Positions 9,277-53,818 are shown, numbered from the stretch's first letter. The stretch is 64,000 bases of DNA from Verrucomicrobiia bacterium (GCA_035629175.1 DASPIL010000073.1:3575-67574); one strand, 5' to 3'. Program-made: numbers and translations. Notes: generated from the sequence alone by a model not told the origin.

Positions 9277-9286
9277 TGATATATCA
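9277..9286. promoter_or_regulatory. YGATATATCA box, copy a (TGATATATCA)
   Basis: Perfect palindrome in the divergent intergenic region between the lipoprotein gene and the pseudopilin gene. It is preceded by the -10-like TATGTT. Confidence 0.5.
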
Positions 9287-9506
9287 CGAATGAGCGCCTC
9301 ACTTTTAACATGTGGAACCTCGAAGTGCATTCCGACAAAGTTCTCTCCCGTTTTTCGCATGTGCATCAGTGCGGAAACACACTGCGGCTGACTCTGGACT
9401 GAACGCCCGTCACCGAGTGCAACGTCAAGACACTATTCGAATTATGAACCGGAAAATGAGCATCAACTACGTGCGTGACTTTGGACGAGTGTCGCATGAG
9501 AGAAAA

Positions 9507-10214
9507 ATGAAGAGAGGGGCGGCATTCACGCTGATTGAACTGCTGGTGGTGATCGCTATTATTGCCATTTTGGCGGCCATGCTTTTGCCGGCTTTGGCGA
9601 AGGCGAAACAAAAAGCTCAAAGAACTTCGTGCGCCAATAATCTGAGGCAGTTCACGCTGGCATTCACGATCTTCGCCATGGATGCGAAGGACAAGTTTCC
9701 CTGGGACGCTTCAATCATGGATGGAGGGGTTCAAAAGCCCAACAACTATGGAAACGTATTAATCGTCTCGTTGTTCAACACGGTTTCAAACCAACTGCCC
9801 ACGCCTTTCATCACGGCATGCCCTGCTGACAAAGCGGCCGTTCCCGTCCGGAGCTGGGCAGAGTTCGATAAAACCAATACCAGCTACGCGGTGTCGTTAG
9901 ATGCGAAACCTAAATACCCGCAATCGATTTTATGGATCGACAAGAATTTTTGGCCGGCATCGCCCAGAAAGCATTACATCTCCAAAACGCCTGTGGGTGA
10001 CGGGGACACTGCGTCCGTCAATCAGATTGCTTGGGACAACAAGACCCACGTGAGATCAGGCAATTTTTCTCAGGCGGATGGCAGTGTTCAGCAGGTCAAC
10101 ATCCCCGGCTTGCAGACCGCCTTCACGAGCTATCTCGATGCTGTGGGCACCGATAATTACGCGAGCCGGATTACAAAAATGCCATTCAATCAAGTCTATA
10201 TGCTGCAGGACTGA
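9507..10214 (+). CDS. Prepilin-type N-terminal cleavage/methylation domain protein, H-X9-DG (DUF1559-like) family
   Basis: N-terminus [48 protein letters not shown], and a C-terminal [12 protein letters not shown] (H-X9-DG). The track ORF starts at 9312 (GTG). I prefer the ATG at 9507; an ATG at 9444 is also possible. Confidence 0.85.
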
Positions 10215-10307
10215 CGGGCTCTGCGCTCCAGACTGTCTTACCCCCAGGCCGGTTTAATGTCTCCGACAGAATGTCGCCACCCCCCGGTGACTCAAACAAA
10301 ACAACCC

Positions 10308-12506
10308 ATGAAAAAACATATTGATCCACAGGCAAGGATTCCCAGGGCGTTTCTCGCAACGGCTGCGCTCCTTATCCTAACCACGCGTGCGTTCGCGGTC
10401 GATTTCCAATGGACCGGCTCGGCGGCCAACGGGTATTGGGGCGACGCAAACAATTGGTCACCGCTGGGTGTTCCAAATGATGGGGTTAATGACACGGCCA
10501 CACTTCCGAGAATTGGTTTCACCAATATCGTGCTTGCAGACGCTAACGGCATGCCGGCCTCGTATGTCGTTACTAATCTTGTAATCAACTCGACGAACGA
10601 AGCGGTTGCTAATGTTGTCACGATCCCGGCTGGCCAGTCCCTTCAAACCACTTTTTTTCTTCTAGGTCCCGGAGATCTCGAAGAACTGGCTACTACGCAC
10701 TTCAGGGTGTCCGGCGAAGGAGAATTGAGAATCACGCCTTCAAATCAAAGAAGTGACGAGGTGGTTCGAATCGGAAGAAGTTCAAGTGGTCCGGGCAACA
10801 TCGCAACTTTGGATCTTTCCGGTCTGAACAGCTTCTATGTGACCAACAGCGGACGTTTCGTCATCGGCGATAAAAGCGGGGACGGAATGCCGGGAACAAT
10901 CATTCTAGCCACGAACAGCACGATTTCCACCACCGAGTTCGATCTCGGATTCGATCCCGCTGGGATGGAAACCATCCTGTTGGGTGTCGGCACCAACAGG
11001 CTTCAGGGGACGATCCGGATGGCGGTTGGAACGGCTGGCATGGGGACGATCAAGTTTCAGGACGGTGACACCAACGGTGTTGCCATTTTCCGCAACCGCG
11101 CTGGCACCGGAAAGATGGATATTCAAATGCAGCAGTCCAACAGTGAGTCGACGAATGACGTGACGAACTTGATTGATCTCAGAGGGCACCATGCAGACTT
11201 GAACGTCAGACTGTTCCGGCAATCAGCCCTCAATACACTTGGTATTCACACTGGACGAAAAGGAGTGATCGACAACCGTTTTTATTTCGATCGTGGGATA
11301 TTCAACATGGATAGTGCCTTGTTGGGGTGGGCGGGTGATAACACCAATAACGTGAATCTTTTCAGCATAGGCGGCGGGGCGGTAAACGTCACGGCGGTGA
11401 ATCAATTTACATCCGTGGCGATCGGCTTGTCGGGAATAGCGCCAGCCACGCTGCATATCGGCGGTGGCAGCCTCACTGTGTTGAACGGGGGGATAGGAAA
11501 GTATACGCTGGTCGATACTGCGAATGTCGCCACCTTGATTTTAAACAGTACCAACAGCGCCGATCCTGCCGTGCTTGATATGAACGGGAATTACATTGGG
11601 ACGGACACCGCTCCGCTGGATATTGTGGAATTCCTGGCAGGGACGCTCAAGAACCTGTCGCAATTCAATGGAGGAAGCAATCTGGTGAAGAGCGGACCGG
11701 GGGTCCTGACCTTGTCGGGAACCAATGCATATACCGGCGGAACTGTGGTCGAAAGCGGGACCCTGGTCGTCGACAGCGACGATGCCTTAAGCGATAACAC
11801 GCCGAGTTTCGCTCTGATGGGCAGCGTTCTCGACGTTTCCGGTCTATCTGGCGGAACTCTGGTGTTGGGTGCGCTGATGCCGCAAACCCTTCAGGGCTCG
11901 GGAACAATTCTAGGGAGCCTTGACGTGCGGAACGGTTCAACCCTTTCCCTTGGAAATCCCACCGGGACGCTTACCGTGACGAACGCCGTCACGCTGGCCG
12001 GCACGACCATGGTTTCGCTGGATCGAAGTGCGACGCCCAACAGCGGCCGGCTTCAGGCGGCGAACATCACGTTTGGTGGAGAAATCATTGTCACCAATGC
12101 GGGCGCGGGATTGCTGGCGGGCCAGAGCTTCCAACTGTTCAGTGGTCCCAGCACCGGGACCTTCGCGTCAGTGAGCCTGCCGGCCACCGATCATAACGGA
12201 GCCAATTATACTTGGACTGACAAACTGGCAATCGACGGCACAATTCAGGTGTTGACCTCGTCCGTCACCGGGCCGAACCCTGATCCCACTCCGACGAACA
12301 TCACGGCCACAGTCACCGGCAATTCAGTCACCCTCGCGTGGCCGGAGAGTCACACCGGCTGGTTGCTGCAGGTCCAGACGAATTCCCTCTCAATCGGGAT
12401 CAGCCCGGATTGGCACACCATTCCGGGATCGGAAAACAGCAATGAGTTGATTCATAACATTGATCGTTCCCAAGGGAGCGTGTTCTTCCGCCTTGTGTAT
12501 CCTTGA
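10308..12506 (+). CDS. Secreted autotransporter-associated beta-strand (PATR) repeat protein
   Basis: Signal peptide MKKHIDPQARIPRAFLATAALLILTTRAFA and PATR unit LVKSGPGVLTLSGTNAYTGGTVVESGTLVV. The track start at 10257 is replaced by the ATG at 10308. Confidence 0.8.
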   Translation: MKKHIDPQARIPRAFLATAALLILTTRAFAVDFQWTGSAANGYWGDANNWSPLGVPNDGVNDTATLPRIGFTNIVLADANGMPASYVVTNLVINSTNEAVANVVTIPAGQSLQTTFFLLGPGDLEELATTHFRVSGEGELRITPSNQRSDEVVRIGRSSSGPGNIATLDLSGLNSFYVTNSGRFVIGDKSGDGMPGTIILATNSTISTTEFDLGFDPAGMETILLGVGTNRLQGTIRMAVGTAGMGTIKFQDGDTNGVAIFRNRAGTGKMDIQMQQSNSESTNDVTNLIDLRGHHADLNVRLFRQSALNTLGIHTGRKGVIDNRFYFDRGIFNMDSALLGWAGDNTNNVNLFSIGGGAVNVTAVNQFTSVAIGLSGIAPATLHIGGGSLTVLNGGIGKYTLVDTANVATLILNSTNSADPAVLDMNGNYIGTDTAPLDIVEFLAGTLKNLSQFNGGSNLVKSGPGVLTLSGTNAYTGGTVVESGTLVVDSDDALSDNTPSFALMGSVLDVSGLSGGTLVLGALMPQTLQGSGTILGSLDVRNGSTLSLGNPTGTLTVTNAVTLAGTTMVSLDRSATPNSGRLQAANITFGGEIIVTNAGAGLLAGQSFQLFSGPSTGTFASVSLPATDHNGANYTWTDKLAIDGTIQVLTSSVTGPNPDPTPTNITATVTGNSVTLAWPESHTGWLLQVQTNSLSIGISPDWHTIPGSENSNELIHNIDRSQGSVFFRLVYP

Positions 12507-12543
12507 ACGAACCAGGGTAGCGGGTTGAATCAGTTTCAGCGCA

Positions 12544-12569
12544 CGGCCGAAGGTCAATTCCTTCGGCCG
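12544..12569 (+). terminator. Perfect 10-bp stem / 6-nt loop hairpin (possible terminator, attenuator or processing site)
   Basis: cggccgaagg tcaatt ccttcggccg. No U-run follows on either strand, so it is not a canonical intrinsic terminator. Confidence 0.3.
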
Positions 12570-12650
12570 GTCTGCTGGATGTGTTCCAGTTCGTTGGGCC
12601 CATCGAAGCTTGTGCGAATACGTGAGGAAACGCCCCCAACCAATAAAACA

Positions 12651-13436
12651 ATGCCAAAGTTTGCAGCAAACCTGACCATGCTTTTCACTGAAGCGCCATT
12701 CATGGAGCGCTTTGCCCTGGCGCGAAGGGCGGGCTTCACGTATGTCGAATATCTTCTGCCCTATTCCTACGAAGCTAAAGATTTGAAAGCTCAGCTGCGT
12801 GAGAACGGCCTGCAACAGGTGCTGTTCAATCTGCCGTGCGGCGATTGGACGGCAGGGGACCGCGGCATTGCCGCTCATCCCGGACGGAAGGACGAGTTTC
12901 GCGCCGGAGTAGAAAAGGCCATCAGCTACGCCAAAGCTCTCGGAGTAGCCCGGCTCAATTGTCTTGCCGGCAAGAGAACTTCAGGGTTCACCGAGGAGCA
13001 GCATTGGGAAACACTTGCCAGCAATGTTCAGTATGCCGCCGAAGCACTGAGATCGGACGGATTGACGTTGTTGGTTGAGGCCATCAATCACTATGACATT
13101 CCGGATTTTTTCCTGCACCGCACAGAGCAAGTGCTGAAGCTGATCGATCAGGTGAAGCAACCCAATGTGCTGATGCAGTATGACATTTATCATGCGCAGC
13201 GGGAGGAGGGCGAAATTACCGCAACGCTGCGCCGGAACATCTCGCGGATCGGACACATACAAGTAGCCGACAATCCCGGACGGAATCAGCCTGGCACGGG
13301 CGAAATTAATTTTCCCTTTCTGTTCAAGGAACTCGAAACGCTCAGCTACGACGGCTATATCGGGCTTGAGTACGTGCCGAAAGGCCCGAGCGGAGATTCA
13401 TTCGGCTGGATGAATGAGGCTGGGCATAAGTCGTGA
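12651..13436 (+). CDS. hyi: Hydroxypyruvate isomerase
   Basis: MPKFAANLTMLFTEAPFMERF...IACHPGR-type...GTGEINFPFLFKELE tracks E. coli Hyi along its whole length. The track ORF (12525) is trimmed to the ATG at 12651. Confidence 0.8.
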   Translation: MPKFAANLTMLFTEAPFMERFALARRAGFTYVEYLLPYSYEAKDLKAQLRENGLQQVLFNLPCGDWTAGDRGIAAHPGRKDEFRAGVEKAISYAKALGVARLNCLAGKRTSGFTEEQHWETLASNVQYAAEALRSDGLTLLVEAINHYDIPDFFLHRTEQVLKLIDQVKQPNVLMQYDIYHAQREEGEITATLRRNISRIGHIQVADNPGRNQPGTGEINFPFLFKELETLSYDGYIGLEYVPKGPSGDSFGWMNEAGHKS

Positions 13437-13467
13437 GCGGATCGCGAATAATCGTTCGAATACAACT

Positions 13468-14355
13468 ATGAAAATTGGCTTCATTGGGCTCGGAATCATG
13501 GGCAAACCCATGAGCAAAAATCTGCTGAAAGCAGGCTATGAACTCGTGGTTTGCGGACATGTGGCTCGTGGCAACGTGGAGGAACTGGTTGCTGCCGGTG
13601 CCCGGGAGGTGGCAACTCCGAAGGAAGTAGCTCAAGAGGTCGACGTTGTGCTCACCATGCTTCCCAACTCACCGCAGGTGATTGAAGTGGTGCTGGGAAA
13701 GGACGGCGTGATTGAAGGCGCTCGTCCGGGAATGATTCTAGCCGACATGAGTTCGATTGCTCCACTCGCCAGCCGCGAGCTGGCGGACCGCCTTGCCGAA
13801 AAGCAGGTGGAGATGCTTGACGCGCCGGTCAGTGGTGGCGAACCGAAAGCTATCGCGGGAACACTGTCTGTGATGGCTGGCGGCAAGCCGGAGGTTTTTG
13901 AGAAATGCCGGCCGATCTTTAATGCCATGGCGGCTTCAGTGGTGTTGACCGGAGATATCGGCGCCGGAAATGTGACAAAGCTGGCCAACCAGATCATTGT
14001 CGCTCTGAACATCGCGGCTATGTCAGAAGCGTTGGTGCTCGCCACCAAGGCGGGTGTCTCTCCGGAGCTTGTGTTCCAGGCTGTGCGAGGTGGGCTGGCG
14101 GGCAGCGCTGTCCTGGATGCCAAAGCGCCGCTCGTAATGGACCGAAACTTCAAACCCGGTTTCAAAATAAACCTTCACATCAAGGACCTCGCAAACGCCC
14201 TGGAAACCGCGCACGAAATCGGGGTCCCGCTTCCTCTGACGGCTTCCGTCATGGAACTGATGCAGACTCTCAAAGTTGACGAGATGGGAGATTCCGATCA
14301 CGGAGCATTGATCCGCTATTACGAGAAAATGGCGAAGGTTCAAGTTGCGAGATAG
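13468..14355 (+). CDS. garR: 2-hydroxy-3-oxopropionate (tartronate semialdehyde) reductase
   Basis: MKIGFIGLGIMGKPMSKNLLKAGY...DAPVSGGEPKAIAGTLSVMAGG...GAGNVTKLANQIIVALNIAAMSEAL...FKPGFKINLHIKDLANAL is very close to enterobacterial GarR/GlxR. Confidence 0.85.
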   Translation: MKIGFIGLGIMGKPMSKNLLKAGYELVVCGHVARGNVEELVAAGAREVATPKEVAQEVDVVLTMLPNSPQVIEVVLGKDGVIEGARPGMILADMSSIAPLASRELADRLAEKQVEMLDAPVSGGEPKAIAGTLSVMAGGKPEVFEKCRPIFNAMAASVVLTGDIGAGNVTKLANQIIVALNIAAMSEALVLATKAGVSPELVFQAVRGGLAGSAVLDAKAPLVMDRNFKPGFKINLHIKDLANALETAHEIGVPLPLTASVMELMQTLKVDEMGDSDHGALIRYYEKMAKVQVAR

Positions 14356-14378
14356 ATCCCCGGCGCCACGTTTTTAAT

Positions 14379-15650
14379 TTGAAAAAACTAATCAAGAATC
14401 GTTGGTGGGTTGTATTCCTTCTGTTCACCGGGACCTTCATTAACGCTTTGGATCGAGGCAGCATTTCGACGGCGGCTCCGTTCATCATGACGGATCTAAA
14501 GATTGATCCAGCCATGATGGGCATCATTCTCTCCTCCTTTTTTTGGGCGTACCTGGCATTGAACATTCCTGCTGGAATCCTGGCGGATAAATTTGGCCCC
14601 AAAGCCACTTTGGGCTGGTCCGCTTTTATCTGGTCCGCTTTTTCGGCGTTGACCGGACTCGCTACGCAGTTCTGGCATGTGTTGCTTTTCCGAATCGGGG
14701 TCGGCGTGGGCGAAGCGGCAATTAATCCGGTGAACACAAAAGTGGTCCGGGCGACGTTCGTATCTGAAGAACGCGGAACTGCGGTCGGAATTTACCTTTC
14801 CGGTTTTCGGTTGGGCTTTGCAGCAGCGCCGGTCGTAATGGCTTACCTGATTCAGATCTTCAACTGGCGTTATGCCTTTCTCATAACGGGAATTGGCAGT
14901 CTCGGCTGGGTGGCACTCTGGTATTTGACCTATAGCGAGTCCAGGAAGGAGGAATCCGCGAGTGCCAGCGCGTCGAAGAAGATTCCCTGGACGAAGCTGC
15001 TGCGTCATCGAAACGTTCTCGGCGTGGTCATGTGCAAGTTTTTCCAGGATTACTCCTTTTATCTTTTTGTGACATGGCTGCCTGCGTATCTCGTAATGGA
15101 ACGCGGTTTTACGCTTGTCAAGAGCGGTTGGTATTCGGCGTTGCCTTGGATCGCTGCGTTCATGTTTCAACCGGTGGCGGGAAAAATTTCTGACTGGCTG
15201 ATCAAGCGCGGCTTGACGGTGACGCAATCACGAAAGGGTTGCATCGTGGTGCTCCAGTTCCTGGCGGCTTCGATCGTTTGCGCCGGTTATGTGGATAGCG
15301 CGATTCTGGCGGTCTGGATTCTGGCGGCGTGCCTGGCATTCGAATCCGGCGCGAGCGTCGTTCTCTGGGCCGTTTGCGCGGAAGTGGCGCCAAACAAAGC
15401 GTCTGCCTCAGTGGGTGGAATCATGAACACGGCCGGCGCTCTCGGCGGCATCCTGGCTCCAATCATTACCGGATTGCTGCTGACGTGGACAGGAAGCTTT
15501 CAGTACGCCCTGTTAGTCGCCGGTTGCATGTTCGTTTTCGCGTCGCTTTCCATGTGGTTCGTAGTCGGAAAAGTGGAGACTATTTCACTCGACGACGACG
15601 ACGCACCCAAAACTTCGGCGTCCGCGCCTCCCGCGGCACAGGCCACCTGA
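14379..15650 (+). CDS. MFS transporter, anion:cation symporter (ACS) type (sugar-acid transporter, GarP/GudP/ExuT-like)
   Basis: 423 aa and about 12 TM helices, with the ACS-like motifs LDRGSISTAAP and GVGEAA. The start is apparently TTG. Confidence 0.8.
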   Translation: MKKLIKNRWWVVFLLFTGTFINALDRGSISTAAPFIMTDLKIDPAMMGIILSSFFWAYLALNIPAGILADKFGPKATLGWSAFIWSAFSALTGLATQFWHVLLFRIGVGVGEAAINPVNTKVVRATFVSEERGTAVGIYLSGFRLGFAAAPVVMAYLIQIFNWRYAFLITGIGSLGWVALWYLTYSESRKEESASASASKKIPWTKLLRHRNVLGVVMCKFFQDYSFYLFVTWLPAYLVMERGFTLVKSGWYSALPWIAAFMFQPVAGKISDWLIKRGLTVTQSRKGCIVVLQFLAASIVCAGYVDSAILAVWILAACLAFESGASVVLWAVCAEVAPNKASASVGGIMNTAGALGGILAPIITGLLLTWTGSFQYALLVAGCMFVFASLSMWFVVGKVETISLDDDDAPKTSASAPPAAQAT

Positions 15651-15659
15651 AGAGGTCCG

Positions 15660-16436
15660 ATGAATAACAACCTGAAGCAACGATTAAAGGCAGGCGAAAG
15701 CCTGGTCGGAACGATGGTTACTGCGTTCGACAACCCGCAGATTGCCAAGATCGTCAAGCTCTGCGGCTTCGATTGGTTCGTCATCGATTGCGAGCATGGG
15801 TCTTTCGATTACAGCAAGGTTGCGAACGTCCTTGCGCTGGCTCGCGAAATTAGAATTCCCGCGATTGTGCGCATCCCTGAAGTTCGGCGCGGGGTGATCC
15901 TTAAGTACATGGAAATGGGTGCTGCAGGATTGCTGCTGCCGAACGCCGAAACAGTGGAGCAGGCTGAATTGCTCGTGAGGTACGCCAAGTATGCTCCACT
16001 GGGCGATCGAGGAGTCTCGTTGTTTCGGCCGCACAGCGGTTACGAGAAAGTTGAGAACGCTGGTGAATACATGGCGAATACCAATCAGGAAACGGTGCTG
16101 ATGGTTCAGATCGAGTCGCGGAAAGCCGTGCAGAACGCCGGTGAGATTCTGGCCGTCGAAGGCATTGACGCGGCTTTTGTTGGTCCGAGTGACTTGTCGC
16201 AAAGCCTGGGAATTCCCGGACAGTTGGGAAATCCTGAATTCATCAATGCAGTGGATCAGGTGATCGCAGCTGCGAAACAGCAGGGAAAGTATTCCGGCCT
16301 TCACGTCATGACCAACACCGAGGCTTTGGACCCGTGGATCGCCAAAGGCATGACCCTGAATCTTTGGTCCAACGAGATTCTTCTCCTTATGCAGGCCGCT
16401 CGCGAAGGGTTGGCAAGGTTCAAACGAACGCCATGA
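15660..16436 (+). CDS. HpcH/HpaI-family 2-keto-3-deoxy-sugar-acid aldolase (GarL-like)
   Basis: GFDWFVIDCEHGS, PAIVRIPE, RYAKYAPLGDRG, QIESRKAV and FVGPSDLS are typical HpcH/HpaI aldolase blocks. Confidence 0.8.
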   Translation: MNNNLKQRLKAGESLVGTMVTAFDNPQIAKIVKLCGFDWFVIDCEHGSFDYSKVANVLALAREIRIPAIVRIPEVRRGVILKYMEMGAAGLLLPNAETVEQAELLVRYAKYAPLGDRGVSLFRPHSGYEKVENAGEYMANTNQETVLMVQIESRKAVQNAGEILAVEGIDAAFVGPSDLSQSLGIPGQLGNPEFINAVDQVIAAAKQQGKYSGLHVMTNTEALDPWIAKGMTLNLWSNEILLLMQAAREGLARFKRTP

Positions 16437-16452
16437 GTCACGCAGGAAAAAC

Positions 16453-17619: not shown

Positions 17620-17678
17620 GCTCATGCACGCACGCACTCATTCGCCGGTGAGCTTTGAACCGAAGGAGAACAGCATTT

Positions 17679-19162: not shown

Positions 19163-19200
19163 TTGACACAAAGAATGCAGAAGGTATTCTCGATATATCA
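19163..19200 (+). promoter_or_regulatory. Sigma-70-like promoter TTGACA-N16-TATTCT abutting YGATATATCA box, copy b
   Basis: TTGACA at 19163-19168, TATTCT at 19185-19190 and CGATATATCA at 19191-19200. The box ends 78 nt upstream of the aldolase ATG at 19278. Confidence 0.5.
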
Positions 19201-19277
19201 AGTATGCAAGTGTGGGCCACGGGTACAGTATCGCAGTCCAAAGTGGACTGTATCTTGACGCGTCGGTGACAAAACCT

Positions 19278-20015
19278 ATGGGACAAACAAAACAAAAGTT
19301 AGCACTCGGGAAGGCGGCGTTGGGAGGCTGGATCATGATCGGGCATCCATCGGTGGCAGAGATCATGGCGGGGGAAGGTTTTGACTGGATCGCGGTCGAC
19401 CTGGAACACACCAGCACAAGTCTGCACGATCTCCAGGCGATTGCGATGGCCCTGAAAGGCAGTGAGTGCGATCTGCTGGTGCGGCTGCATTCGTGTGACG
19501 CGGTTCAAGCCAAGCTGGTGCTCGATATTGGGGCTGATGGAATCATTGTGCCGGCGGTGAACACACCGGCGCAGGCAGCACAGGCGGCAGCCATTGCGCG
19601 ATTTCCGCCGGAGGGCATTCGAGGGACGTCGTTGTGCCGAGCCACGGATTTTGGACGCAACTTCAAAGACTATTTTGAGCAACACAACCGAAAAGTGATC
19701 GTGGTGGTGATGCTGGAGAATCATGTGGGAGTAGCGCAGGCTGATGCGATTCTGTCCACGCCAGGAGTGGATGCGGCCTTTATCGGGCCGTACGATTTGT
19801 CGGCCTCGATGGGTTTGGCCGGCCAGTTGGAGCATCCGGATGTCCTGGCGGCGCAACAGAAGGTATTGGCTGCGTGTGTTCGGCATGGCGTCGCGCCGGG
19901 AATCCATGTGGTCTCAACCAATCCTGACGACCTGAAACAGTGCGTTGACGAGGGATTCCGGTTTGTCGCGTGCAGTCTCGATACACTTTTCATCCAACAG
20001 GGTTGCCGCAAGATG
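19278..20015 (+). repeat. Inverted-duplication arm 1 (738 bp)
   Basis: Manual alignment to the reverse complement of 40686-41423 gave 49 mismatches and no indels (about 93 percent identity). Identical runs reach about 100 nt (for example 19716-19819). Confidence 0.85.
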
Positions 20016-41423: not shown

Positions 41424-41692
41424 GGTGTCAGGAGTGTGGAATGGTGAAAGGGCCTACGATCTCGGTTGCGACCACCATCTTGAGTTCAAGCCGTCCGGCA
41501 CGAGCCAATTCGTAAAACGTGAGTGGAAGATTGACGGTATGACGGGACTCAACACGGGAATCAGCCGGGGCATTTCGGGCTGTTCACGACAATCGAGCAA
41601 ATCCCGGATGGAAACGGGAAAGGCCGATTCGGTCCAGCATGAGCAGATCATCCGGGACTGTTCCGCTGCAACCGTTGTTGAACGAAAACTGC

Positions 41693-45173: not shown

Positions 45174-45235
45174 AGAGCGACGAAAGTTGACCGGAATTCA
45201 GTCCGAAACAAGTTCATGCAGGCAAAGCACATATC

Positions 45236-45245
45236 TGATATATCA
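45236..45245. promoter_or_regulatory. YGATATATCA box, copy c (TGATATATCA)
   Basis: Perfect palindrome 63 nt upstream of the GTG start of the 14-kb minus-strand gene train. It is preceded by ATATC. Confidence 0.5.
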
Positions 45246-45429: not shown

Positions 45430-45439
45430 CGATATATCA
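45430..45439 (+). promoter_or_regulatory. YGATATATCA box, copy d (CGATATATCA)
   Basis: Lies in the same 565-bp divergent intergenic region, 300 nt upstream of the GH29 ATG at 45739, and is preceded by CATATA. Confidence 0.45.
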
Positions 45440-45738: not shown

Positions 45739-47286
45739 ATGATCGAATGCCAACGAAGTTTGATTCTTATGGCCCTGTTGACGATGAGCTGCGGGTTTGG
45801 TGTGGGAGCGGTGGATACGGCTCCGCTGCTCGGCCAAAAACGGATCAGCCAAGCCGAGGAAACGGGATTGCAGGAAAAATATTCCGGCTATCGCAGAGTC
45901 GATGATGATTATGTTCACGCGGGCGAAGCTGCCTTGGAGCGCTGGATGGATTGGAAATGGGGACTGCGAATCCATTGGGGTTTATACACTCTTTATGCTG
46001 GCGACAAACCTTGGAGCGGCGAATCGTGGATAATTCCCAAGTTCCATTCGGACGACAAGGAATGGCAGAAGAAATATTATACGTCGTATCAGGATTTCAA
46101 TCCGCAAGGGTTCGATGCGGACGAATGGATGCGGATCATGCAGCAGGGCGGCATGAAATATTTTTCTTTCACCACCAAGCATCACGATGGCTTCTGTCTG
46201 TGGCCGACGAAGACTCTGCAAAAAGGATTTCGCAGGCTGGCGGATGGTTCTTTCGAGGACGTCACGAATCATTTCAGCGTGGCGGAAACACCCTTCAAGC
46301 GGGACGTTGTAGGGGAGTTGGTTAAAGCCGGGCGCGCTCACGGACTCGGGGTGAGTCTTTATTATTCCCACATCGACTGGCACGACTGGGATTTTGCGTG
46401 GGATCATCGCAATTACTGGTACGACACGAATTTCACCAAGGTTTCAGATCCCGCACGCTGGGCCGCCTTCATCCAGAAGGAGCGTGATCAGGTTACTGAG
46501 CTCCTGACATGGTATGGTCCGATCGACACGCTGTGCTTTGACATCAGTTGGGGCGAGGCAAAGGAGAAGGCGTTCAGCATTGCCAAGCTTTCCCGTGATC
46601 TTCAACCGAACACACTGCTGCGCAATCGTGGCACTGAAATGTATGGCGATTACAGCACACCAGAGGGGGAGATTCCGGCCGACCCCAACGAAATGAAAAT
46701 GCCGTGGCAGGTGATTTATCCGTGCGGGAGCGGCGCCTCGTACCGCCTGAATGATAATTACAAGCCCAAGGAATGGGTTTTGGAGAGCCTGATCGATATT
46801 GTGGCCAAGGGTGGGAATTTCCAGGTCGGCTTTGGTCCCGACGCCAATGGCAGGTGGCCCCAGCAAATGATTGACCGTTTGAACTACGTCGGAGACTGGC
46901 TCGAGGTGAATGGTGAAAGCATCTTTGCCACGCGTCCTTACCTTCGTTATCACGAAGGCAGCGATTTGAGGTTCACGCGGACGAAGGACAAAAAATTCGT
47001 GTACATTCTTAGCTTGGTCTGGCCGGGGGAAAAACTGAAATCGCGGATGGTCAAAGCCAAAGCCGGCACGGCGATTCGCCTGCTTGGTTATGACCAAGAC
47101 TTGGTTTGGCGGCAGCAGGACGACACGCTTATCATAGATATCCCGAAGAAGCTGCAGTCCGAATCAAATCGTCCCGCACAACAGGCATACGCCTTCAAGG
47201 TTGAATCTAAAGCCTGGGATGAATTCGCCGAAAGCTTGCCGGTTGAACCTCCACTGCCGTCGAAGGATAAGAAATCTTCACCGTAG
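45739..47286 (+). CDS. Alpha-L-fucosidase, GH29
   Basis: GLRIHWGLYTL and FTTKHHDGFCLWPT. Signal-like N-terminus. Paralog of 34097-35632. Confidence 0.85.
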   Translation: MIECQRSLILMALLTMSCGFGVGAVDTAPLLGQKRISQAEETGLQEKYSGYRRVDDDYVHAGEAALERWMDWKWGLRIHWGLYTLYAGDKPWSGESWIIPKFHSDDKEWQKKYYTSYQDFNPQGFDADEWMRIMQQGGMKYFSFTTKHHDGFCLWPTKTLQKGFRRLADGSFEDVTNHFSVAETPFKRDVVGELVKAGRAHGLGVSLYYSHIDWHDWDFAWDHRNYWYDTNFTKVSDPARWAAFIQKERDQVTELLTWYGPIDTLCFDISWGEAKEKAFSIAKLSRDLQPNTLLRNRGTEMYGDYSTPEGEIPADPNEMKMPWQVIYPCGSGASYRLNDNYKPKEWVLESLIDIVAKGGNFQVGFGPDANGRWPQQMIDRLNYVGDWLEVNGESIFATRPYLRYHEGSDLRFTRTKDKKFVYILSLVWPGEKLKSRMVKAKAGTAIRLLGYDQDLVWRQQDDTLIIDIPKKLQSESNRPAQQAYAFKVESKAWDEFAESLPVEPPLPSKDKKSSP

Positions 47287-47390: not shown

Positions 47391-47430
47391 TTGGCATGCT
47401 CGTCCTGCTTTGTAAATATCCGATATATCA
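47391..47430 (+). promoter_or_regulatory. Sigma-70-like promoter TTGGCA-N16-TAAATA followed by YGATATATCA box, copy e
   Basis: TTGGCA at 47391-47396, TAAATA at 47413-47418 and CGATATATCA at 47421-47430. The box ends 33 nt upstream of the ATG at 47463. Confidence 0.5.
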
Positions 47431-47462
47431 AGAATCCATTGAAACTCCCTTCTGATAAATTC

Positions 47463-49274
47463 ATGCGAAACGGAATGTTAAATACCATCGGACTTGAAGC
47501 CAAAGTGCGAGATCGTGATGCTGGTTCACGGCTCGTTGGCAATCTGAAACTGCGGCTGCTGGCGCTCGTATCTGTGGGAATCCTCACCGGGACTGTCCCG
47601 GCAGCCGAGCCGCGCGTGGGCGAGGTTCTATACAATGGGATTCAATTACCCGAACAATGGCCGCCGACCACACCCATACCGGGCCGAAAGGTTCGGCCGG
47701 TGCCTTACCTGTCAAATCGCCCCGCAGTTGTGCCAATTGATGTCGGGCGCCAGTTGTTTGTGGACGATTTTTTGATTGAGAGCAGTACCCTCAAGCGCGA
47801 ATGGCATTATCCAGAACGCTATGAAGGGAATCCGATTCTCAAGGCTGAAACTCCAACTGAGTTGAATAACGGAAAGTTGCCTTTGGCTGCGATGATCAGT
47901 GACGGCGTCTGTTACGATCCCGAAGCGCGCGAATTCAAGATGTGGTACCAGGCGGGATGGCGCGATGGCACCATGATTGCCACCAGCAAGGATGGATTGA
48001 AGTGGACACGTCCCGAAACAGATATTGAACCTGGTAACAATCGTGTGCTGCCTTCGAGAGGCCGGTTGGTGCGTCACGGCACCAGCATCGTTCGCGATCC
48101 TTATACCAAGGACCCATCCCAGCGCTTCAAATTAACAGTCTTCGAAAACCACATTCGAAAGACGTCGGCTTATGCGTCGGGGGATGGTATCCACTGGGAC
48201 TTCAAAGGACATCTGCCGGAATGCGGTGACAACACCACATTTTTTTATAATCCATTTCGCAAGAAATGGGTGTTCAGTGTTCGATTGTATCGCGATGGCC
48301 GCTCCCGCAACTATGTTGAGTGCGACGACTTTTTTACTGGCATGAATTGGGATAAGGAAAAGGAATCCCCCTGGGCGCATCCCGATGTTCTCGATCTGCC
48401 TGATCCCCTGGTGGCATCCTACCGACCCACACCTGAAATGATCGCGGCGGAGGCGGTCTCCTCGAATCGCCCCGTCGCTGAGTTGACCGAGCACTATGCA
48501 AAGTTGTACGGCGACCCCGTGCATTTATACAATCTCGATGCGATGCCTTATGAAAGCATCATGATTGGTGTGTGGGGATTGCTGAAAGGCCCTATGACTT
48601 CCCGGGCTTGGAACAAGCATGATATTGGCAAGATCATTGATCTGTACGCCGCGTACAGCCGTGATGGATTTCATTGGGATCGACCGGATCGGACGCCCTT
48701 CCTGGCTTCGACCCGAAAGCCAGGTGATTGGGACCGGAGCTATCTGCATTCCGGCGTTGGCATCTGCACGGTCGTCGGCGATAAATTGTATTTCTACTAC
48801 AGCGGCTGGTCTGCGGAAGGAACGAATGGCGTCCCAGCCACCTACGCAGGCGGTGCAAATGGTGTGGCGTTCCTGCGCCGCGACGGTTTTGCGTCAATGA
48901 ACGCCGACACGAAAGAAGGAACGTTGACCACGCGCCCGGTGACATTCAAGGGTAAGCATATGTTTGTGAATGTGAATGCGCCCAAGGGTGAACTGAAGGT
49001 GGAGGTCCTCGATGAAGCAGGGAAAGTTATTGCGCCGTTCTCCGCCCGGAATTGCACTACTCTTAAGGGCGACCGGACCAAATTGCAGGTAGCTTGGAAA
49101 GGCGCGGATGATCTGTCCAGGCTCAGCGGTAAGAAGGTGCGCTTCCGTTTTACTCTGCAGCAGGGCGAACTGTATTCATTCTGGGTGACGCCCGATGCAA
49201 CCGGCGCGAGCCATGGCTACGTGGCTGCTGGCGGGCCTGATTTCCCGGGGCCGGTTGACACGGTTGGAAAATGA
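47463..49274 (+). CDS. Secreted beta-propeller glycoside-hydrolase-like protein, paralog of 24542-26380
   Basis: Same conserved blocks as the paralog. The track start at 47391 would place the promoter and box inside the gene, so the ATG at 47463 is preferred. Confidence 0.6.
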   Translation: MRNGMLNTIGLEAKVRDRDAGSRLVGNLKLRLLALVSVGILTGTVPAAEPRVGEVLYNGIQLPEQWPPTTPIPGRKVRPVPYLSNRPAVVPIDVGRQLFVDDFLIESSTLKREWHYPERYEGNPILKAETPTELNNGKLPLAAMISDGVCYDPEAREFKMWYQAGWRDGTMIATSKDGLKWTRPETDIEPGNNRVLPSRGRLVRHGTSIVRDPYTKDPSQRFKLTVFENHIRKTSAYASGDGIHWDFKGHLPECGDNTTFFYNPFRKKWVFSVRLYRDGRSRNYVECDDFFTGMNWDKEKESPWAHPDVLDLPDPLVASYRPTPEMIAAEAVSSNRPVAELTEHYAKLYGDPVHLYNLDAMPYESIMIGVWGLLKGPMTSRAWNKHDIGKIIDLYAAYSRDGFHWDRPDRTPFLASTRKPGDWDRSYLHSGVGICTVVGDKLYFYYSGWSAEGTNGVPATYAGGANGVAFLRRDGFASMNADTKEGTLTTRPVTFKGKHMFVNVNAPKGELKVEVLDEAGKVIAPFSARNCTTLKGDRTKLQVAWKGADDLSRLSGKKVRFRFTLQQGELYSFWVTPDATGASHGYVAAGGPDFPGPVDTVGK

Positions 49275-49298
49275 TTCACCAACGTTGAGCATTGCACG

Positions 49299-49325
49299 CT
49301 CCGCAGAGGGGGCTCTTCTGCGGAG
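49299..49325 (+). terminator. 9-bp stem hairpin downstream of stop (weak terminator candidate)
   Basis: ctccgcaga ... tctgcggag with a 9-nt loop and no U-tract. Confidence 0.25.
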
Positions 49326-49458
49326 CTGCCCGAACCGTTGAAAAGGCCGCGATGCCGGGTGTTCGTCGAAACCGGAGCAGGTCGGCACGTAACTTCCAGA
49401 TGGCGGCAATGTTTTCTGCAGCAGATTTGAAAAGTTGAAGCAAACAACCAGCTAATTT

Positions 49459-50994
49459 ATGAAGACATTCTGTGCATCGGCGATGGTTCTGACGGCATAC
49501 CTTGCGATATCTTCTCTCGTTTCGGGACAAACTGCGGTCGCGCCAAAGGTGGAAAAGAACGCTCCCCATCCATCGTTTGATATCTCTCCGGAAGAGGCCG
49601 CCGCGAATCAGCATTATAATCAACCGCTGCGGCCGCAATTTCATTACACCCCCATTCAGGGATTCGTGGGCGATGCCACGGGGCTTATTTATGACAACGG
49701 CACGTACCATCTGTTCTACATGTCGGACAAGTGGGAGCGGCGGAAGAATCGCAACAAACGGTGGGGTTACGCCACCAGCTCGGACTTGTTGCATTGGAGT
49801 GAGAAGCCTTCCGTTCTCGATCCGATCCACGACAACAAACCTGGCAGCGGCAGCGGCATTGTGGATTGGGACAACACTCTGGGACTGCAAACCGGCAGGC
49901 AAAAAACGCTGGTGGTTTATTACACTGATTACAAGACCGGAAGCTGTATTCTGTACAGCACCAATGGCGGTGTGACATGGACACGACATCCGCAGAATCC
50001 AGTATTGCCGCGCATCGCGAGCAACGATCGAGATCCGACAGTCTTCTGGCATCCACAAACAAAGCAATGGCGGATGATCCGGCACGAAGAACCCTTCAAC
50101 GGCGACGGCAAGACCGGCTTTGTGTTCTTCGGATCGACCAACCTTCTTGATTGGACCTTTCTCAGCCGAATCGGTGATTTCAATGAATGCGCTGATTTTT
50201 TCGAACTGCCTGTCCGGGGTGGTCGGCGGGGGGAGAAAAAGTGGGTGCTGATGGACGCTGGCTACAATTACAAGCTCGGGTCCTTTGACGGCACCGAGTT
50301 CAAGCCCGAGTCTGAAAAGCTGCGGGCTGATTATGGCGCCGCCAAGTTCGCCTATGCGCCTCAAACCTGGAAGAAAACACGGGATGGCAAAACCCCGCCG
50401 ATTCAAATGGGTTTTCTTCATTATCCAAAAGGGGCGGATCTCATGCCTATGCGGCTTGTCTGGCACGGACAGATGACCTTTCCATGCGAGATCACGCTTA
50501 AACAGTTTGCTGAAGGTCCGCGGATCTGCCGGGAACCGATCAAGGCGATTGAGAAGCTTTATGGGGAGAAAAGGTCCTGGCGCAACCTGATGCTTAAACC
50601 CGGTGAGAATCCCCTGGCGGATTTGACTGGGGACACGTTGGATATTCGCATGGAGATCGAACTGGACGAAGCCGCCGAGATTATTTTTAACGTGCGTGGT
50701 GAATTGATCCGATACTCAAGGGCTCGCCATCTTTTGGAAATTGGAACCTCCAAGATTCCGCTTCGGCTCGCTGGAAAAACTCTTCGTTTGCGGGTTCTGC
50801 TGGACCGTGCCTCTATTGAAGTGTTTGCAGATGAGAATCAGGTCTCATTTTCAAAAGCTGTCTTCTTTGATGCAGCACAAAGAGATTTCAGTCTGTCCGC
50901 TGAAAAGGGCGGGGCTCAGTTGAAATCTCTTACCGCCCATCAAATCAAGTCCATTTGGGACGAGAATGCTAAGGTCGCTTCCGCGAAGCGCTGA
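49459..50994 (+). CDS. GH32 family glycoside hydrolase (divergent)
   Basis: RPQFHYTPIQGFVGDATGLIYDNGTYHLFY, NDRDPTVFW (RDP block) and FNECADFFEL (EC block). Signal peptide present. Confidence 0.8.
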   Translation: MKTFCASAMVLTAYLAISSLVSGQTAVAPKVEKNAPHPSFDISPEEAAANQHYNQPLRPQFHYTPIQGFVGDATGLIYDNGTYHLFYMSDKWERRKNRNKRWGYATSSDLLHWSEKPSVLDPIHDNKPGSGSGIVDWDNTLGLQTGRQKTLVVYYTDYKTGSCILYSTNGGVTWTRHPQNPVLPRIASNDRDPTVFWHPQTKQWRMIRHEEPFNGDGKTGFVFFGSTNLLDWTFLSRIGDFNECADFFELPVRGGRRGEKKWVLMDAGYNYKLGSFDGTEFKPESEKLRADYGAAKFAYAPQTWKKTRDGKTPPIQMGFLHYPKGADLMPMRLVWHGQMTFPCEITLKQFAEGPRICREPIKAIEKLYGEKRSWRNLMLKPGENPLADLTGDTLDIRMEIELDEAAEIIFNVRGELIRYSRARHLLEIGTSKIPLRLAGKTLRLRVLLDRASIEVFADENQVSFSKAVFFDAAQRDFSLSAEKGGAQLKSLTAHQIKSIWDENAKVASAKR

Positions 50995-51041
50995 AATACA
51001 GGCCAGCGAATGCTGGTTTAAGAACCCGTCAAAATCCGCCC

Positions 51042-52706
51042 ATGACAAAACATAAAAGATTCCTGCTTCTGTGCATCCGGACCGCAGCCGCGTTTTTATT
51101 CGCCGCTGGAACAACCACGGCCTTCGCACAGGGAACCAGCACGAATCTCACTTCTCGTGTGCCGAGGTTTACTTTCGGACAAACACTTGAGGAGCAGAAG
51201 GCTCAACTTAAAACCAACTCACTGTTGCGGCGGTTTGCCGAATCACGGGAAAAGTTGTCCAGTGATCCGCATCGTCCGTTCTATCATTACGTGAACCCCG
51301 AGGCTCGCTTGAACGATCCGAACGGGCTTTCATTTTGGCGGGGCCGCTGGCATCTCTTTTATCAGGCATATCCGCCCGAAGACACCCGCCAGCATTGGGG
51401 CCACGCCGTCAGCGAGGATCTCATTCACTGGCGTGATCTGCCTTACGCCATTTACCCGAACCCGGAAGAGAAATCCTTTTCCGGGGCAATTTTGATTGAA
51501 GAGGATCGCGCGATTGCGATGTACCACGGAACAGCGGTCGGCAACATCGTTGCTGTCTCATCGGATCCATTGCTGTTGAACTGGGAGAAGCTCACAGGAG
51601 CGGCAGTGATACCCCGGAGGAAGCCGGGTGAGCCGGCGCAGCCGTATAATGTGTATGATCCCTGCATTTGGAAAAAGGATGGGATGTATTATTCGATTTC
51701 CGGCAGCACCATGCCCACTGGCCCCGCTCGAAAGCCGCTTCCAGCACAATATCTTTTCCGTTCCATAGACCTTGTAAAATGGGAATACCTGCACCAGTTC
51801 GTGGAGGATGATCGCTTCACCATGGTGGGCGATGACGGAGCGTGTCCCTATTTCTGGCCGATTGGGGACCGTCATATCTTACTTTTCTTCAGTCACATGA
51901 GCGGCGGCCAATATCTTATCGGTGATTACGACAAGCAACGAGACAAGTTTATTGCGACGTCTCATGCGAAATTCAATTTTGGTCCCTCCACACCTGGCGG
52001 AGTCCACGCGCCCTCTGCGTTTCCGGACGGCAAAGGAGGCGTGATCACGATCTTCAACGTCAATCCCGCGAAATCCACGCCGGGCTGGAATCAGCTGATG
52101 ACGCTGCCCCGACGGTTGACGCTCGCCTCAAAGGACGTCTTGGAGGTCGAGCCGGCCGGCGACATTGAATCGCTTCGCTACGGTCATCGCCGCGTGGAGA
52201 ATGTTTCTCTGCCGGCAAATCAGGAGATTGTTCTCACAAATATCCACGGCAATGCCGCGGAATACATTCTTGAGATCGAGCCCAGTCATGCACCGTTGGT
52301 TGAGTTGAATGTGTTGAGATCACCTGGCAAGGAAGAGTACACGCGGATCGCGTTTTTCCGGAATCGTGGTTACGTCATCAGCCGGGCTCGAACTGGGGAT
52401 TCGTTCCAAAGCTCGGTCAGCCTTGATACTTCGTATTCATCCGAACTCGACTCAGCCACATCGCGCGCTCCCGAAACCGCGCAGATTGCCATTGCACGCG
52501 ATGAGCCGCTAAAGCTCCGCGTGTTCGTCGACAAGAGCATCGTCGAAGTTTTCATCAATGGTAAGCAGTGCGTTGCCGCCCGGGTGTATCCCGGGCGTTC
52601 TGACAGTGTCGGCGTGTCGCTGCGAAGCCAGGGTCGGAATTCGATGCTCAAATCGTTTGACGCCTGGCAGATGAAGTCGATCTATGAAACGGCGAAGAAT
52701 CGGTGA
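51042..52706 (+). CDS. GH32 family protein with atypical RDP/EC blocks
   Basis: HRPFYHYVNPEARLNDPNGLSFWRGRWHLFYQ is canonical. YDPCIW stands where RDP is expected, and GACPYFW stands where ECP is expected. Confidence 0.75.
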   Translation: MTKHKRFLLLCIRTAAAFLFAAGTTTAFAQGTSTNLTSRVPRFTFGQTLEEQKAQLKTNSLLRRFAESREKLSSDPHRPFYHYVNPEARLNDPNGLSFWRGRWHLFYQAYPPEDTRQHWGHAVSEDLIHWRDLPYAIYPNPEEKSFSGAILIEEDRAIAMYHGTAVGNIVAVSSDPLLLNWEKLTGAAVIPRRKPGEPAQPYNVYDPCIWKKDGMYYSISGSTMPTGPARKPLPAQYLFRSIDLVKWEYLHQFVEDDRFTMVGDDGACPYFWPIGDRHILLFFSHMSGGQYLIGDYDKQRDKFIATSHAKFNFGPSTPGGVHAPSAFPDGKGGVITIFNVNPAKSTPGWNQLMTLPRRLTLASKDVLEVEPAGDIESLRYGHRRVENVSLPANQEIVLTNIHGNAAEYILEIEPSHAPLVELNVLRSPGKEEYTRIAFFRNRGYVISRARTGDSFQSSVSLDTSYSSELDSATSRAPETAQIAIARDEPLKLRVFVDKSIVEVFINGKQCVAARVYPGRSDSVGVSLRSQGRNSMLKSFDAWQMKSIYETAKNR

Positions 52707-52945
52707 ACTTTGGATGCTGTCCCGGACGCGCTGGATCGCGTGACCGCCGGTGCTGCGACTGAGGCCGTGAATTCGTCTGCCGCGCTGCACAAACGCGACT
52801 GTCGGCCAGAAACAGTTCGTTTTGAATCTGGTTACTTTAATATTCCTTTTTCACCTCGCGATTCTCCGCTTTTTTTGTCAAGCGTCATCGTTTTGACCGG
52901 CCTTTATTCTTGTATTTAAAACGGCGTGCGATAGATATACCGCAC

Positions 52946-53674
52946 ATGCAAGATAGCTTCCAGACTCTCAAGGCTCAGGTTTACCAAACCTTGCGGCGCG
53001 AGATTCTGTCCGGCACCACTCCCCCCGGCACCCGGCTCGTGAGACGAACCTTGAGCCTTCGCTTGGGCGTCAGTCCCATTCCAGTCATCGAGGCCCTGCA
53101 TCAGCTGGAAAAGGACGGATTGGTGGAGAGTCAACCCATGTACGGTCATCGGGTCCGGGCTTTGAGTGTGGATGCCGCCCGGAATGATCATGTTTTGCGC
53201 GAAGCGATTGAATGTCAGGCAGCGCGCTTATGTGCCCAGAATGCTTCCGACAAACAGCTCGAGACGTTGGAACGACAGGCGGTGGAATTGGATAAAATTC
53301 TGAAGGGCGATCCGGAGGGTGCCACTCCCGCCGAAGAACACCTTGAATTTCATTTAGGCGTGGCGCGAGCGACGGGCTATAGCGGGTTGGTGGACGCACT
53401 GCAGAACCTATGGTTTCGGCGCTTGATGGTTTTCAACACGGTCAATGCAGCCGCATTGGGGATTCCGCGAAACTGGCACGGCCAGTTGGTCAAGGCATTG
53501 GCCACTCGCGACCCCGATGTCGCAGAGCGAGCCATGCGGGAGCATGTGCAGTTCAACGTTGCGCAACAGATGAAGATGCTGGAATCGAGCCGTGTAACTG
53601 AGCCGGTCAAAGACACTGCTTCCCCCTCCAAGAACGGCAGCAAAAAATCCGTTCGAAAGACTTCCAAGGTCTAG
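52946..53674 (+). CDS. GntR-family transcriptional regulator (FadR/FCD-type C-terminal domain)
   Basis: Winged HTH: LKAQVYQTLRREILSGTTPPGTRLVRRTLSLRLGVSPIPVIEALHQLEKDGLVE. The C-terminal half is helical. The track start at 52910 is trimmed to the ATG at 52946. Confidence 0.8.
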   Translation: MQDSFQTLKAQVYQTLRREILSGTTPPGTRLVRRTLSLRLGVSPIPVIEALHQLEKDGLVESQPMYGHRVRALSVDAARNDHVLREAIECQAARLCAQNASDKQLETLERQAVELDKILKGDPEGATPAEEHLEFHLGVARATGYSGLVDALQNLWFRRLMVFNTVNAAALGIPRNWHGQLVKALATRDPDVAERAMREHVQFNVAQQMKMLESSRVTEPVKDTASPSKNGSKKSVRKTSKV

Positions 53675-53808
53675 CCCGCCTCCTGGCGTTCAGTCTCCCG
53701 TTTCCTTCTAGACTCATAGTACGAAACTGAAGATGCCGGGGAGGCCATTCCGGTCAAAGCCCCCGACATTTGATCATTCGCCTTGCCTTTGAGGGCATCT
53801 GGTATTAA

Positions 53809-53818
53809 CGATATATCA
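53809..53818 (+). promoter_or_regulatory. YGATATATCA box, copy f (CGATATATCA)
   Basis: Lies 112 nt upstream of the ATG at 53930 of the 1822-aa gene and is preceded by TATTAA. Confidence 0.5.

Follow-up and report, generated by a model that had tools for sequence, protein, structure and literature searches.

A recurrent YGATATATCA box in a Verrucomicrobiia glycan and sugar-acid island as the likely operator of a local GntR/FCD regulator

Described operators of the FadR subfamily and the regulator of the window

Operators of the FadR subfamily of GntR regulators follow the consensus TKGT-N(0-3)-ACMA, with NanR and BioR (TTATMKATAA) as exceptions, and an arginine at the key position of the recognition helix prefers a G/C pair (Suvorova et al., PMC4494728). 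NanR of Escherichia coli is an FCD-family repressor of sialic-acid catabolism that binds GGTATA repeats at the promoter and is released by N-acetylneuraminic acid (Neu5Ac) (PMC8012715). For another FCD-type regulator, Atu1419/VanR, the structure was solved bound to palindromic DNA. Here, a 64,000-nt stretch from a Verrucomicrobiia bacterium (GCA_035629175.1, DASPIL010000073.1:3575-67574; the whole stretch is called the window, and positions are counted from its first letter) was analyzed for a 10-nt box, YGATATATCA, that lies ahead of six gene runs, and for the GntR/FCD gene encoded among them (52946-53674, plus strand). We consider it likely, from sequence comparisons, that the box is the operator of this regulator, which would repress six promoters of a 44-kb glycan and sugar-acid island.

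The candidate binder (242 amino acids, aa) contains a winged helix-turn-helix (wHTH) domain (PF00392, E = 1.5e-14, residues 21-82 of the 254-aa open reading frame, ORF) and an FCD domain (PF07729, E = 6.5e-20). An AlphaFold2 model (pLDDT 86.8, pTM 0.77) gave wHTH helices at residues 8-22, 33-40 and 44-56, a wing of two strands and then a helical bundle, and the best Foldseek matches were FCD-type GntR structures (7u5q from Brucella, PmiR 7xp0/7xp1, Atu1419/VanR 6za3 and TM0439; top E-values 1e-8 to 3e-10, TM-scores 0.6-0.7). The same Pfam domains and predicted fold are shared by canonical FadR, PdhR, LldR, DgoR, Atu1419/VanR, PmiR and TM0439, as is a palindromic operator overlapping the promoter, which for the window regulator is a prediction. 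They differ from the window subfamily in having two DNA-contacting helix arginines where it has Pro and Ile/Leu/Thr, and in the TKGT-N(0-3)-ACMA operator, to which the box does not conform. The recognition helix reads GVSPIPVIEAL in the window and VS-(P/V/H)-(I/A)-P-V-(I/L/T)-EA across the subfamily, against GISRGPLREA and GVSRTPVREAL in aligned solved relatives, with both family arginines replaced. We take these to be the DNA-contacting Arg45 and Arg49 of the FadR-DNA complex. The signature REAIECQAAR directly follows the wing and was common to all homologues. The box itself, TGAT-AT-ATCA, lacks the GT-N(0-3)-AC core of the family; the first-pass annotation had already remarked that it is not a classical GntR GT-N-AC site, and the loss of the two helix arginines now stands beside that remark. 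Having A/T in place of GT/AC, the box would fit the altered recognition helix.

In the C-terminal domain, H132, H136, H178, H200 and D116 were invariant in 30 homologues (alignment A4); the His residues stand at metal-site-like FCD positions and, by sequence comparison, align with His residues of 7xp0. A DtxR-like helix-turn-helix in the regulator was considered and rejected, the N-terminal domain being clearly of the GntR type and the iron-dependent-repressor match not significant (E = 0.12). Some homologues have faint precomputed matches to PF01325, the DtxR-type helix-turn-helix.

By analogy, the closest biological counterpart of the window regulator is E. coli NanR. Both combine a wHTH with an FCD domain, and NanR represses catabolic operons from a promoter site, as is proposed for the window regulator. 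The NanR hexamer GGTATA is one base off GATATA, which is present on both strands of the box, and at three of the six window sites GGTAT stands 9 nt upstream of GATAT, the period of the NanR repeats being 8-9. The context is also NanR-like, in that loci of window-regulator homologues look sialic-acid-related (NanA-like DHDPS lyase, GlcNAc 2-epimerase, SASA esterase, BNR_2 and TRAP or SBP_bac_5 transport). The two differ in operator architecture, which is three direct GGTATA repeats for NanR and an inverted repeat here, and NanR binds cooperatively through a 32-residue N-terminal extension, a feature not seen in the window regulator, whose helix 1 starts at residue 8. Orthology with NanR was rejected: model NF003011 scored 44.9 bits against a cutoff of 260 and matched residues 84-206 only, in the FCD domain, and the NanR structure ranked 22nd in the fold search and was absent from the PDB sequence matches listed at E <= 0.001.

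Within the subfamily, the nearest earlier example of a 10-bp operator lacking GT...AC comes from alphaproteobacterial BioR (PMC4494728), a FadR-subfamily regulator whose palindrome has the same geometry, T-N-A-T-N2-A-T-N-A. Compared by description, BioR differs in the outer bases (TTAT against TGAT), in serving a biotin regulon and in taxon. An identical 10-mer core, TGATATATCA, lies between the promoter and the ribosome-binding site in the tro operator of Treponema denticola, a site studied by experiment (PMC2628430); there, however, it is part of an 18-bp dyad, ATTTTGATATATCAAAAT, with TTT/AAA flanks, the binder is the metal-dependent DtxR-type TroR, and a metal ABC transporter is controlled. 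Identity of the window box with a DtxR/TroR operator was rejected, as flank information outside the 10-mer was ~0-0.4 bits and no DtxR gene or metal transporter was found in the span. Besides the T. denticola tro oligonucleotide, literature searches for GATATATC and TGATATATCA returned incidental matches only. No description of the regulator clade or the motif was found in open-access text; a prior description is possible.

The box in the window and beside regulator homologues

The core GATATATC was found exactly six times in the window (9278, 19192, 45237, 45431, 47422 and 53810), whereas dinucleotide-preserving shuffles (n = 100) averaged 0.25 copies and peaked at 2, none reaching 6. These were the six copies reported by the first-pass annotation, which had counted from the 10-mer, one base earlier than the core. 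All six fit YGATATATCA, a palindromic 10-mer, and when one mismatch was permitted just two extra near-matches appeared, both coding (63610 and 63681). An all-A/T-core palindrome is unexpected here because the G+C content of the window is 55%.

Genes were mapped by combining the ORF list with the calls made on identical public contigs. On this map every copy was non-coding and lay upstream of a gene run, as had been claimed from the first reading. The copy at 47422 falls inside a mechanical TTG-ORF, yet the called gene begins at 47475. Distances to the first gene were ~165-230 nt for 9278 (34 nt to a mechanical GTG ORF start at 9312), 86 nt for 19192, 64 nt for 45237 (minus strand), 308 nt for 45431, 53 nt for 47422 and 120 nt for 53810; copies 45237 and 45431 share a 565-nt divergent gap between a major facilitator superfamily (MFS) gene (minus) and a gene of glycoside hydrolase family 29 (GH29; plus). 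The first 9 kb of the window (a P-type ATPase gene and others) held no box, and the GntR/FCD gene was the sole recognisable transcription factor between 9.3 and 64 kb.

A search of a genome collection with the GntR protein returned 29 loci (L005-L033), and closer relatives were obtained by protein search. In L013, L015 (where it occurs twice), L018, L020, L024, L031 and L032 the exact 8-mer precedes the homologue by 50-125 nt, and in L028 and L029 it heads the operon containing the homologue. Seven copies of the 8-mer lay within 9 kb around the regulator in L020, a Sphaerochaetaceae chromosome. Among the closer relatives, L038 (67% identity; a Verrucomicrobiota protein) and L040 (65%) have the exact box at 12 nt from the start codon of the GntR gene, ending 3 nt before that codon, an almost leaderless arrangement, and in L165 (60%) the box starts 13 nt before the ATG. 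In L163 (Lentisphaerae) a box heads a LamG-GntR-URO-D-BNR_2 operon, and in L164 (Kiritimatiellia) two boxes occupy the divergent region adjoining the regulator. Exact TGATATATCA stood at the promoter of the homologue or of its operon in all 14 loci just named; adding the window and the orthologous loci L034 and L036 gives a total of 17 among the 38 non-redundant places that were examined. These box-bearing places belong to six phylum-level groups (Planctomycetota, Victivallales/Lentisphaerota, Kiritimatiellia, Verrucomicrobiota, Sumerlaeales of the Sumerlaeota, and Spirochaetota), and in about ten loci the boxes lie 12-125 nt before the GntR start codon.

When 8-mers were counted without bias in the 250 nt upstream of 32 homologues, ATATATCA ranked first (10 loci vs 0.6 expected), sharing its rank with GATATATC (9 of the 32 regions vs 0.3 expected). 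Across 567 kb of GntR-linked DNA, 21 of the 33 exact cores fell in the 12.5% that was non-coding under a crude, deliberately generous ORF mask (P = 8e-12), and the truly coding copies were without the T...A flanks. Unrelated operons in box-bearing loci, such as the cbb3 oxidase operon in L040, had no box.

The closest orthologous loci, L034 (82% regulator identity) and L036 (81%), had boxes at intergenic positions matching window boxes 3, 4, 5 and 6 (numbered in order along the window). The equivalents of boxes 3 and 4 were found in L036 at 513 and 738, and that of box 6 in L034 at 10852. In alignment A1 (upstream of the gene for a 599-aa protein; window, L034 and L036) the sole conserved block was TTGGCA-N16-TAAATATC[C/A]GATATATCA. 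Alignments of the 45.2-45.7 kb and 53.7-53.9 kb regions with their orthologues were too diverged to register the boxes. Ahead of the window's own regulator gene lies a degenerate box, AGATATACCG (52933..52942, plus strand), whose GATAT starts 12 nt before the GntR ATG. The window shares TAGATATACC, with unchanged spacing to the ATG, with L034 and L036 (directly before 10001 in both), in surrounding sequence that is not conserved, and this geometry is that of the exact box in L038 and L040. The variant at 52933-52942 is probably a weakened autoregulatory operator.

A symmetrised motif was made from 34 sites. The way the motif was built fixes its eight core positions; the T/A on either side was 85% conserved, and information beyond the 10-mer was <=0.4 bits. 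Many sites had an extra half-site, seen as ATATC-N-GATATATCA at window boxes 3 and 5 and as GATATATCAGATAT in L034 and at window boxes 6 and 3, on the minus strand for box 3. L015, L028 and L029 have complete boxes in tandem, spaced by 10-12 bp. Such arrangements suggest that some promoters may be bound by two or more dimers. Other palindromes were found beside some homologues. L021 and L022 have variants TGATATGTCA and TGATATTTCA, and TTGACATGTCAA-type palindromes occur in L005 (9823), L007 (9793), L008 (9804) and L162 (9521 and 9997), that is, in a clade of proteins beginning MANYRF and in Posidoniimonas polymericola (L162), where one copy overlaps the annotated start codon. A residue separating TGATATATCA from TGACATGTCA loci was sought in the recognition helix and none was evident, L013 and L005 being nearly identical there.

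Promoter geometry, proposed repression and competing explanations

The first-pass annotation had placed a -10-like hexamer before each box. Such a hexamer was found 1-3 nt before the box at five window sites, and the promoter of box 4 was weak or unclear in the window, its equivalent in L036 having GTGACA-N17-TAAACA. The putative promoters are TTGCCT (9247-9252)-N18-TATGTT (9271-9276) at box 1, TTGACA-N16-TATTCT (19163-19190; 10/12 matches) at box 2, TTGCGC (45276-45271)-N17-TTACAA (45253-45248) on the minus strand at box 3, TTGGCA (47391-47396)-N16-TAAATA (47413-47418) at box 5 and TTGCCT-N14-TATTAA (TATTAA at 53803-53808) at box 6, all but the third on the plus strand. The two sites credited earlier with a good -35 do have both hexamer pairs; only 19163-19190, however, passed a strict sigma-70 consensus scan, in which one of the six window promoters was found and promoter-like sites were not enriched overall. 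The geometry at the boxes was then compared with a control in which the 50 nt upstream were shuffled. A sigma-70-like promoter (>=8/12 matches) accompanied 25 of the 31 T...A-flanked sites, and the -10 ended within 8 nt of the box start at 22 of the 31, vs 6.7 +/- 2.3 (maximum 14) after shuffling. In the commonest arrangement the box starts 1-5 nt past the -10, and in a minority the box itself is the -10. Clear examples are L028 (TTGACA-N17-TATGAT-N4-box-N4-box-AGGAGG), L032 (TTGCCA-N17-TATAAT-N4-box) and L020 (TTGACA-N17-TAATAT-N7-box). This placement would be classical for steric repression, and activation from there is unlikely.

The earlier proposal of a repressor operator over the transcription start, bound by the local GntR protein, is supported by the boxes at homologue promoters, the 8-mer enrichment, the conserved block in A1 and the 22/31 geometry. 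From these patterns we infer physical binding, repression rather than activation, and the kind of effector. A GntR dimer would bind the 10-bp palindrome via its wHTH domains, and an extra GATAT/ATATC half-site or a second box might recruit a second dimer at some sites. With the box 1-5 nt past the -10 or overlapping it, bound repressor would block open-complex formation or the start site. The six sigma-70-type promoters so controlled would drive about 40 genes for glycan breakdown and catabolism, among them GH29 fucosidases, GH32-family enzymes, a BNR/LamG sialidase-fold protein, PATR/beta-helix surface proteins, a non-phosphorylative fucose-type pathway and sugar-acid catabolism (HpcH aldolases, lactonase, dehydrogenases and GarR-/GarK-like glycerate-pathway enzymes). 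A small acidic metabolite bound at the C-terminal FCD domain may release the repressor.

Several observations weigh against this assignment. Four gaps of 184-269 nt within the span (26381-26602, 41424-41692, 49275-49458 and 52707-52945) had no box at <=2 mismatches, the last of them holding a conserved variant, AGATATACC, and the first-pass statement that a box marks essentially every transcription-unit boundary was too strong. Ahead of its own gene the window regulator has just the degenerate box. Judged by consensus, three of the window's six promoters are weak, and the distance from box 4 to its gene is ~300 nt. The closest homologues in genome assemblies (L005-L012, 50-56% identity) are without an exact box near the gene, and a variant, TGACATGTCA, is found instead upstream of the homologues in L005, L007, L008 and P. 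polymericola (L162). In a reverse test, metagenomes were searched for GATATATC-N1-5-GATATATC, and none of the 80 tandem-core loci sampled (377 kb) matched a hidden Markov model (HMM) of the GntR subfamily. These loci had other flanks (CGATATATCG, satellite-like GGATATATCC, or AGATATATCT next to a PadR gene) or lay in ORF-poor or non-prokaryotic-looking DNA.

Two of these flank types deserve separate mention. Tandem CGATATATCG-N3-CGATATATCG was found in GC-rich (63-72%) contigs L053, L057, L075, L087, L095 and L073; a chance origin is unlikely, and the tandems are probably the operator of some other regulator. In L058, AGATATATCT repeats directly follow a TTGACA, upstream of a PadR-family gene.

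The result of the reverse test speaks for a first alternative, in which the box is the operator of another protein encoded outside the window, DtxR/TroR-like or PadR-like, and the association with GntR is incidental. The presence of TTTGATATATCAAA in the T. denticola tro operator (PMC2628430), the tandem GATATATC cores adjoining the PadR gene in L058 and the faint PF01325 matches in some homologues point the same way. Because of the reverse test and the PadR and TroR cases, the 8-mer core must be taken to serve other systems as well and is not by itself diagnostic of its binder. The window boxes, on the other hand, lack the TTT/AAA flanks of the tro dyad, the regulated span contains no metal-transport, DtxR or PadR gene, and the N-terminal domain of the regulator is of the GntR type, as described above. 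The sole gene that consistently travels with the T-flanked box over six phylum-level groups is the GntR homologue, the box often lying 12-80 nt before its start codon. Assignment to an outside protein is accordingly judged unlikely; what speaks for the GntR/FCD regulator is the forward association, together with its autoregulatory placement and the lack of any other regulator in the span.

Less probable again, and improbable on the whole, is a core-promoter or initial-transcribed element (a discriminator, start-site motif or alternative-sigma -10) that serves as no regulator's site. Such an element would account for boxes directly downstream of, or overlapping, -10-like hexamers, and for GATATA/TATATC itself at the -10 position in L015, L165 and L164. 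It would not account for the perfect palindrome, for an offset from the best -10 that varies from -13 to +19 or for tandem boxes at 10-12 bp spacing in L015, L028 and L029. No box was found at the other promoters of box-bearing loci or in the window's first 9 kb, and the box follows a single regulator family through phyla whose transcription machinery differs. An action in RNA, as a 5'-leader hairpin, riboswitch or protein-binding site, is very improbable: a start in or just before the box would put part of it in the transcript, but there was no Rfam match anywhere in the window, leaders folded no better than shuffled ones (z-scores -1.3 to +1.0), a loopless 10-nt palindrome cannot make a stable hairpin, box 3 acts in reverse orientation, and the predicted -10 of several loci is downstream of the box.

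Gene content of the units and the possible regulon

Operator function for the GntR/FCD protein would place six units under one regulator. Box 1 (TGATATATCA, 9277..9286, plus) heads the operon 9312-19130 (unit A, plus), with genes for a pseudopilin (N_methyl/DUF1559), a PATR protein, a Hyi-like TIM barrel, a NAD_binding_2 reductase (GarR-like), an MFS transporter, an HpcH aldolase, a glycerate kinase and a 491-aa unknown. In this operon the pseudopilin and PATR surface-protein genes precede what looks like a glucarate/galactarate-type lower pathway (HpcH/GarL-like aldolase, GarR-like reductase, glycerate kinase and Hyi-like isomerase, with the MFS transporter). Box 2 (CGATATATCA, 19191..19200, plus) heads the run from 19278 (unit B, plus), which encodes an HpcH aldolase, a 2-hydroxyacid dehydrogenase, a BNR/LamG protein and 496-aa and 614-aa unknowns; the genes that follow, past a gap without a box, encode a ribose-type ABC transporter and a PfkB kinase. 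Box 3 (TGATATATCA then GATAT, 45236..45245, minus) stands upstream of the train 45173-30932 (unit C, minus), which comprises MFS, GH32, HpcH aldolase, GH29, FucU, alcohol dehydrogenase (ADH), two ThuA genes, GH29, short-chain dehydrogenase (SDR), aldo-keto reductase (AKR) and MFS.

Box 4 (CGATATATCA, 45430..45439, plus) precedes the GH29 alpha-L-fucosidase gene 45739-47286 (unit D). Box 5 (CGATATATCA, 47421..47430, plus) precedes the operon 47475-52706 (unit E, plus), which encodes the 599-aa unknown and two GH32 enzymes and may continue into the GntR/FCD gene. Box 6 (CGATATATCA then the extra half-site GATAT, 53809..53823, plus) precedes the operon 53930-63783 (unit F, plus), with genes for a 1822-aa Pel9A-like/PATR beta-helix protein, an AKR, an Amidohydro_2 lactonase-like protein, an ADH and an MFS transporter.

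Across phyla, the recurrent neighbours of the regulator were BNR_2 (sialidase-fold), Laminin_G_3, SASA sialate-O-acetylesterase-family and URO-D-like proteins. Recurrent enzymes were HpcH, DHDPS (NanA-like) and RraA-like aldolases, 2-hydroxyacid dehydrogenase and GlcNAc 2-epimerase, and recurrent transporters were of the MFS, TRAP (DctP/DctM) or SBP_bac_5 ABC types. These neighbours point in common to the release and cleavage of sugars that are acidic or of the 2-keto-3-deoxy type, and the spirochaete and Lentisphaerae loci look sialic-acid-like. The window adds three GH29 fucosidases, a glycerate branch resembling GarL, GarR and GarK, and a gene set like the non-phosphorylative L-fucose route (AKR/ADH dehydrogenases, Amidohydro_2 lactonase-like protein, SDR and HpcH aldolases). 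Because of the regulator neighbours and the catabolic genes of the window, the effector is probably an acidic sugar or a shared keto-acid intermediate. A URO-D-like gene adjoins BNR_2/LamG and GntR in L020, L005, L038, L040, L163 and L165, a spread over Spirochaetota, Planctomycetota, Verrucomicrobiota and Lentisphaerota; none was found in the window.

A broader reading, to which we give about equal weight for and against, is that a new multi-phylum FCD-type GntR clade, marked by REAIECQAAR and by replacement of both helix arginines, reads the A/T-core TGATATATCA as master repressor of glycan and acidic-sugar islands in the six phylum-level groups named above, its sugars being sialic-acid-like, fucose and 2-keto-3-deoxy acids. 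To our knowledge, transcriptional regulation is nearly uncharted in glycan degraders of the Planctomycetes-Verrucomicrobia-Chlamydiae (PVC) superphylum and among free-living spirochaetes. If the broader reading is true, one motif would permit regulon prediction in many uncultured glycan degraders, as an informative operator tied to a recognisable regulator clade would make regulons readable directly from metagenome-assembled genomes. Proteins without an assigned function, such as the 491-, 496-, 599- and 614-aa products, the URO-D-like proteins and the giant PATR/beta-helix proteins, would thereby gain a connection with a pathway of the sugar-acid or fucose/sialic-like kind. For GntR specificity, it would offer a natural case in which loss of two helix arginines accompanies a switch from GT...AC to an A/T core. 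The mechanism itself, a local repressor at a promoter, is conventional; what appears to be new to the literature is the regulator subfamily with its atypical operator.

Three further observations were made on the window. The HpcH aldolase genes at 19274-20010 (plus) and 40691-41423 (minus) form 733-bp inverted repeats with 93.6% identity, and in public contig L002 the window segment 24962->19274 is followed at once by 40691->57286. A strain variant with the ~21-kb segment between the HpcH paralogues inverted (or recombined) therefore exists, and such an inversion exchanges operon bodies between two box-controlled promoters. Ahead of box 1, a 13-pair GC-rich hairpin followed by TTTT (8936-8966, plus) resembles a strong intrinsic terminator. 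It lies inside a 137-aa ORF (8761-9174, minus) that had no family match and may be spurious, in which case 8425-9311 is a single long intergenic region before box 1. Outside the regulon span and unrelated to it, TGACAAATCA occurs twice (3225 and 3456), 231 nt apart, in an 876-nt intergenic gap (2946-3821).

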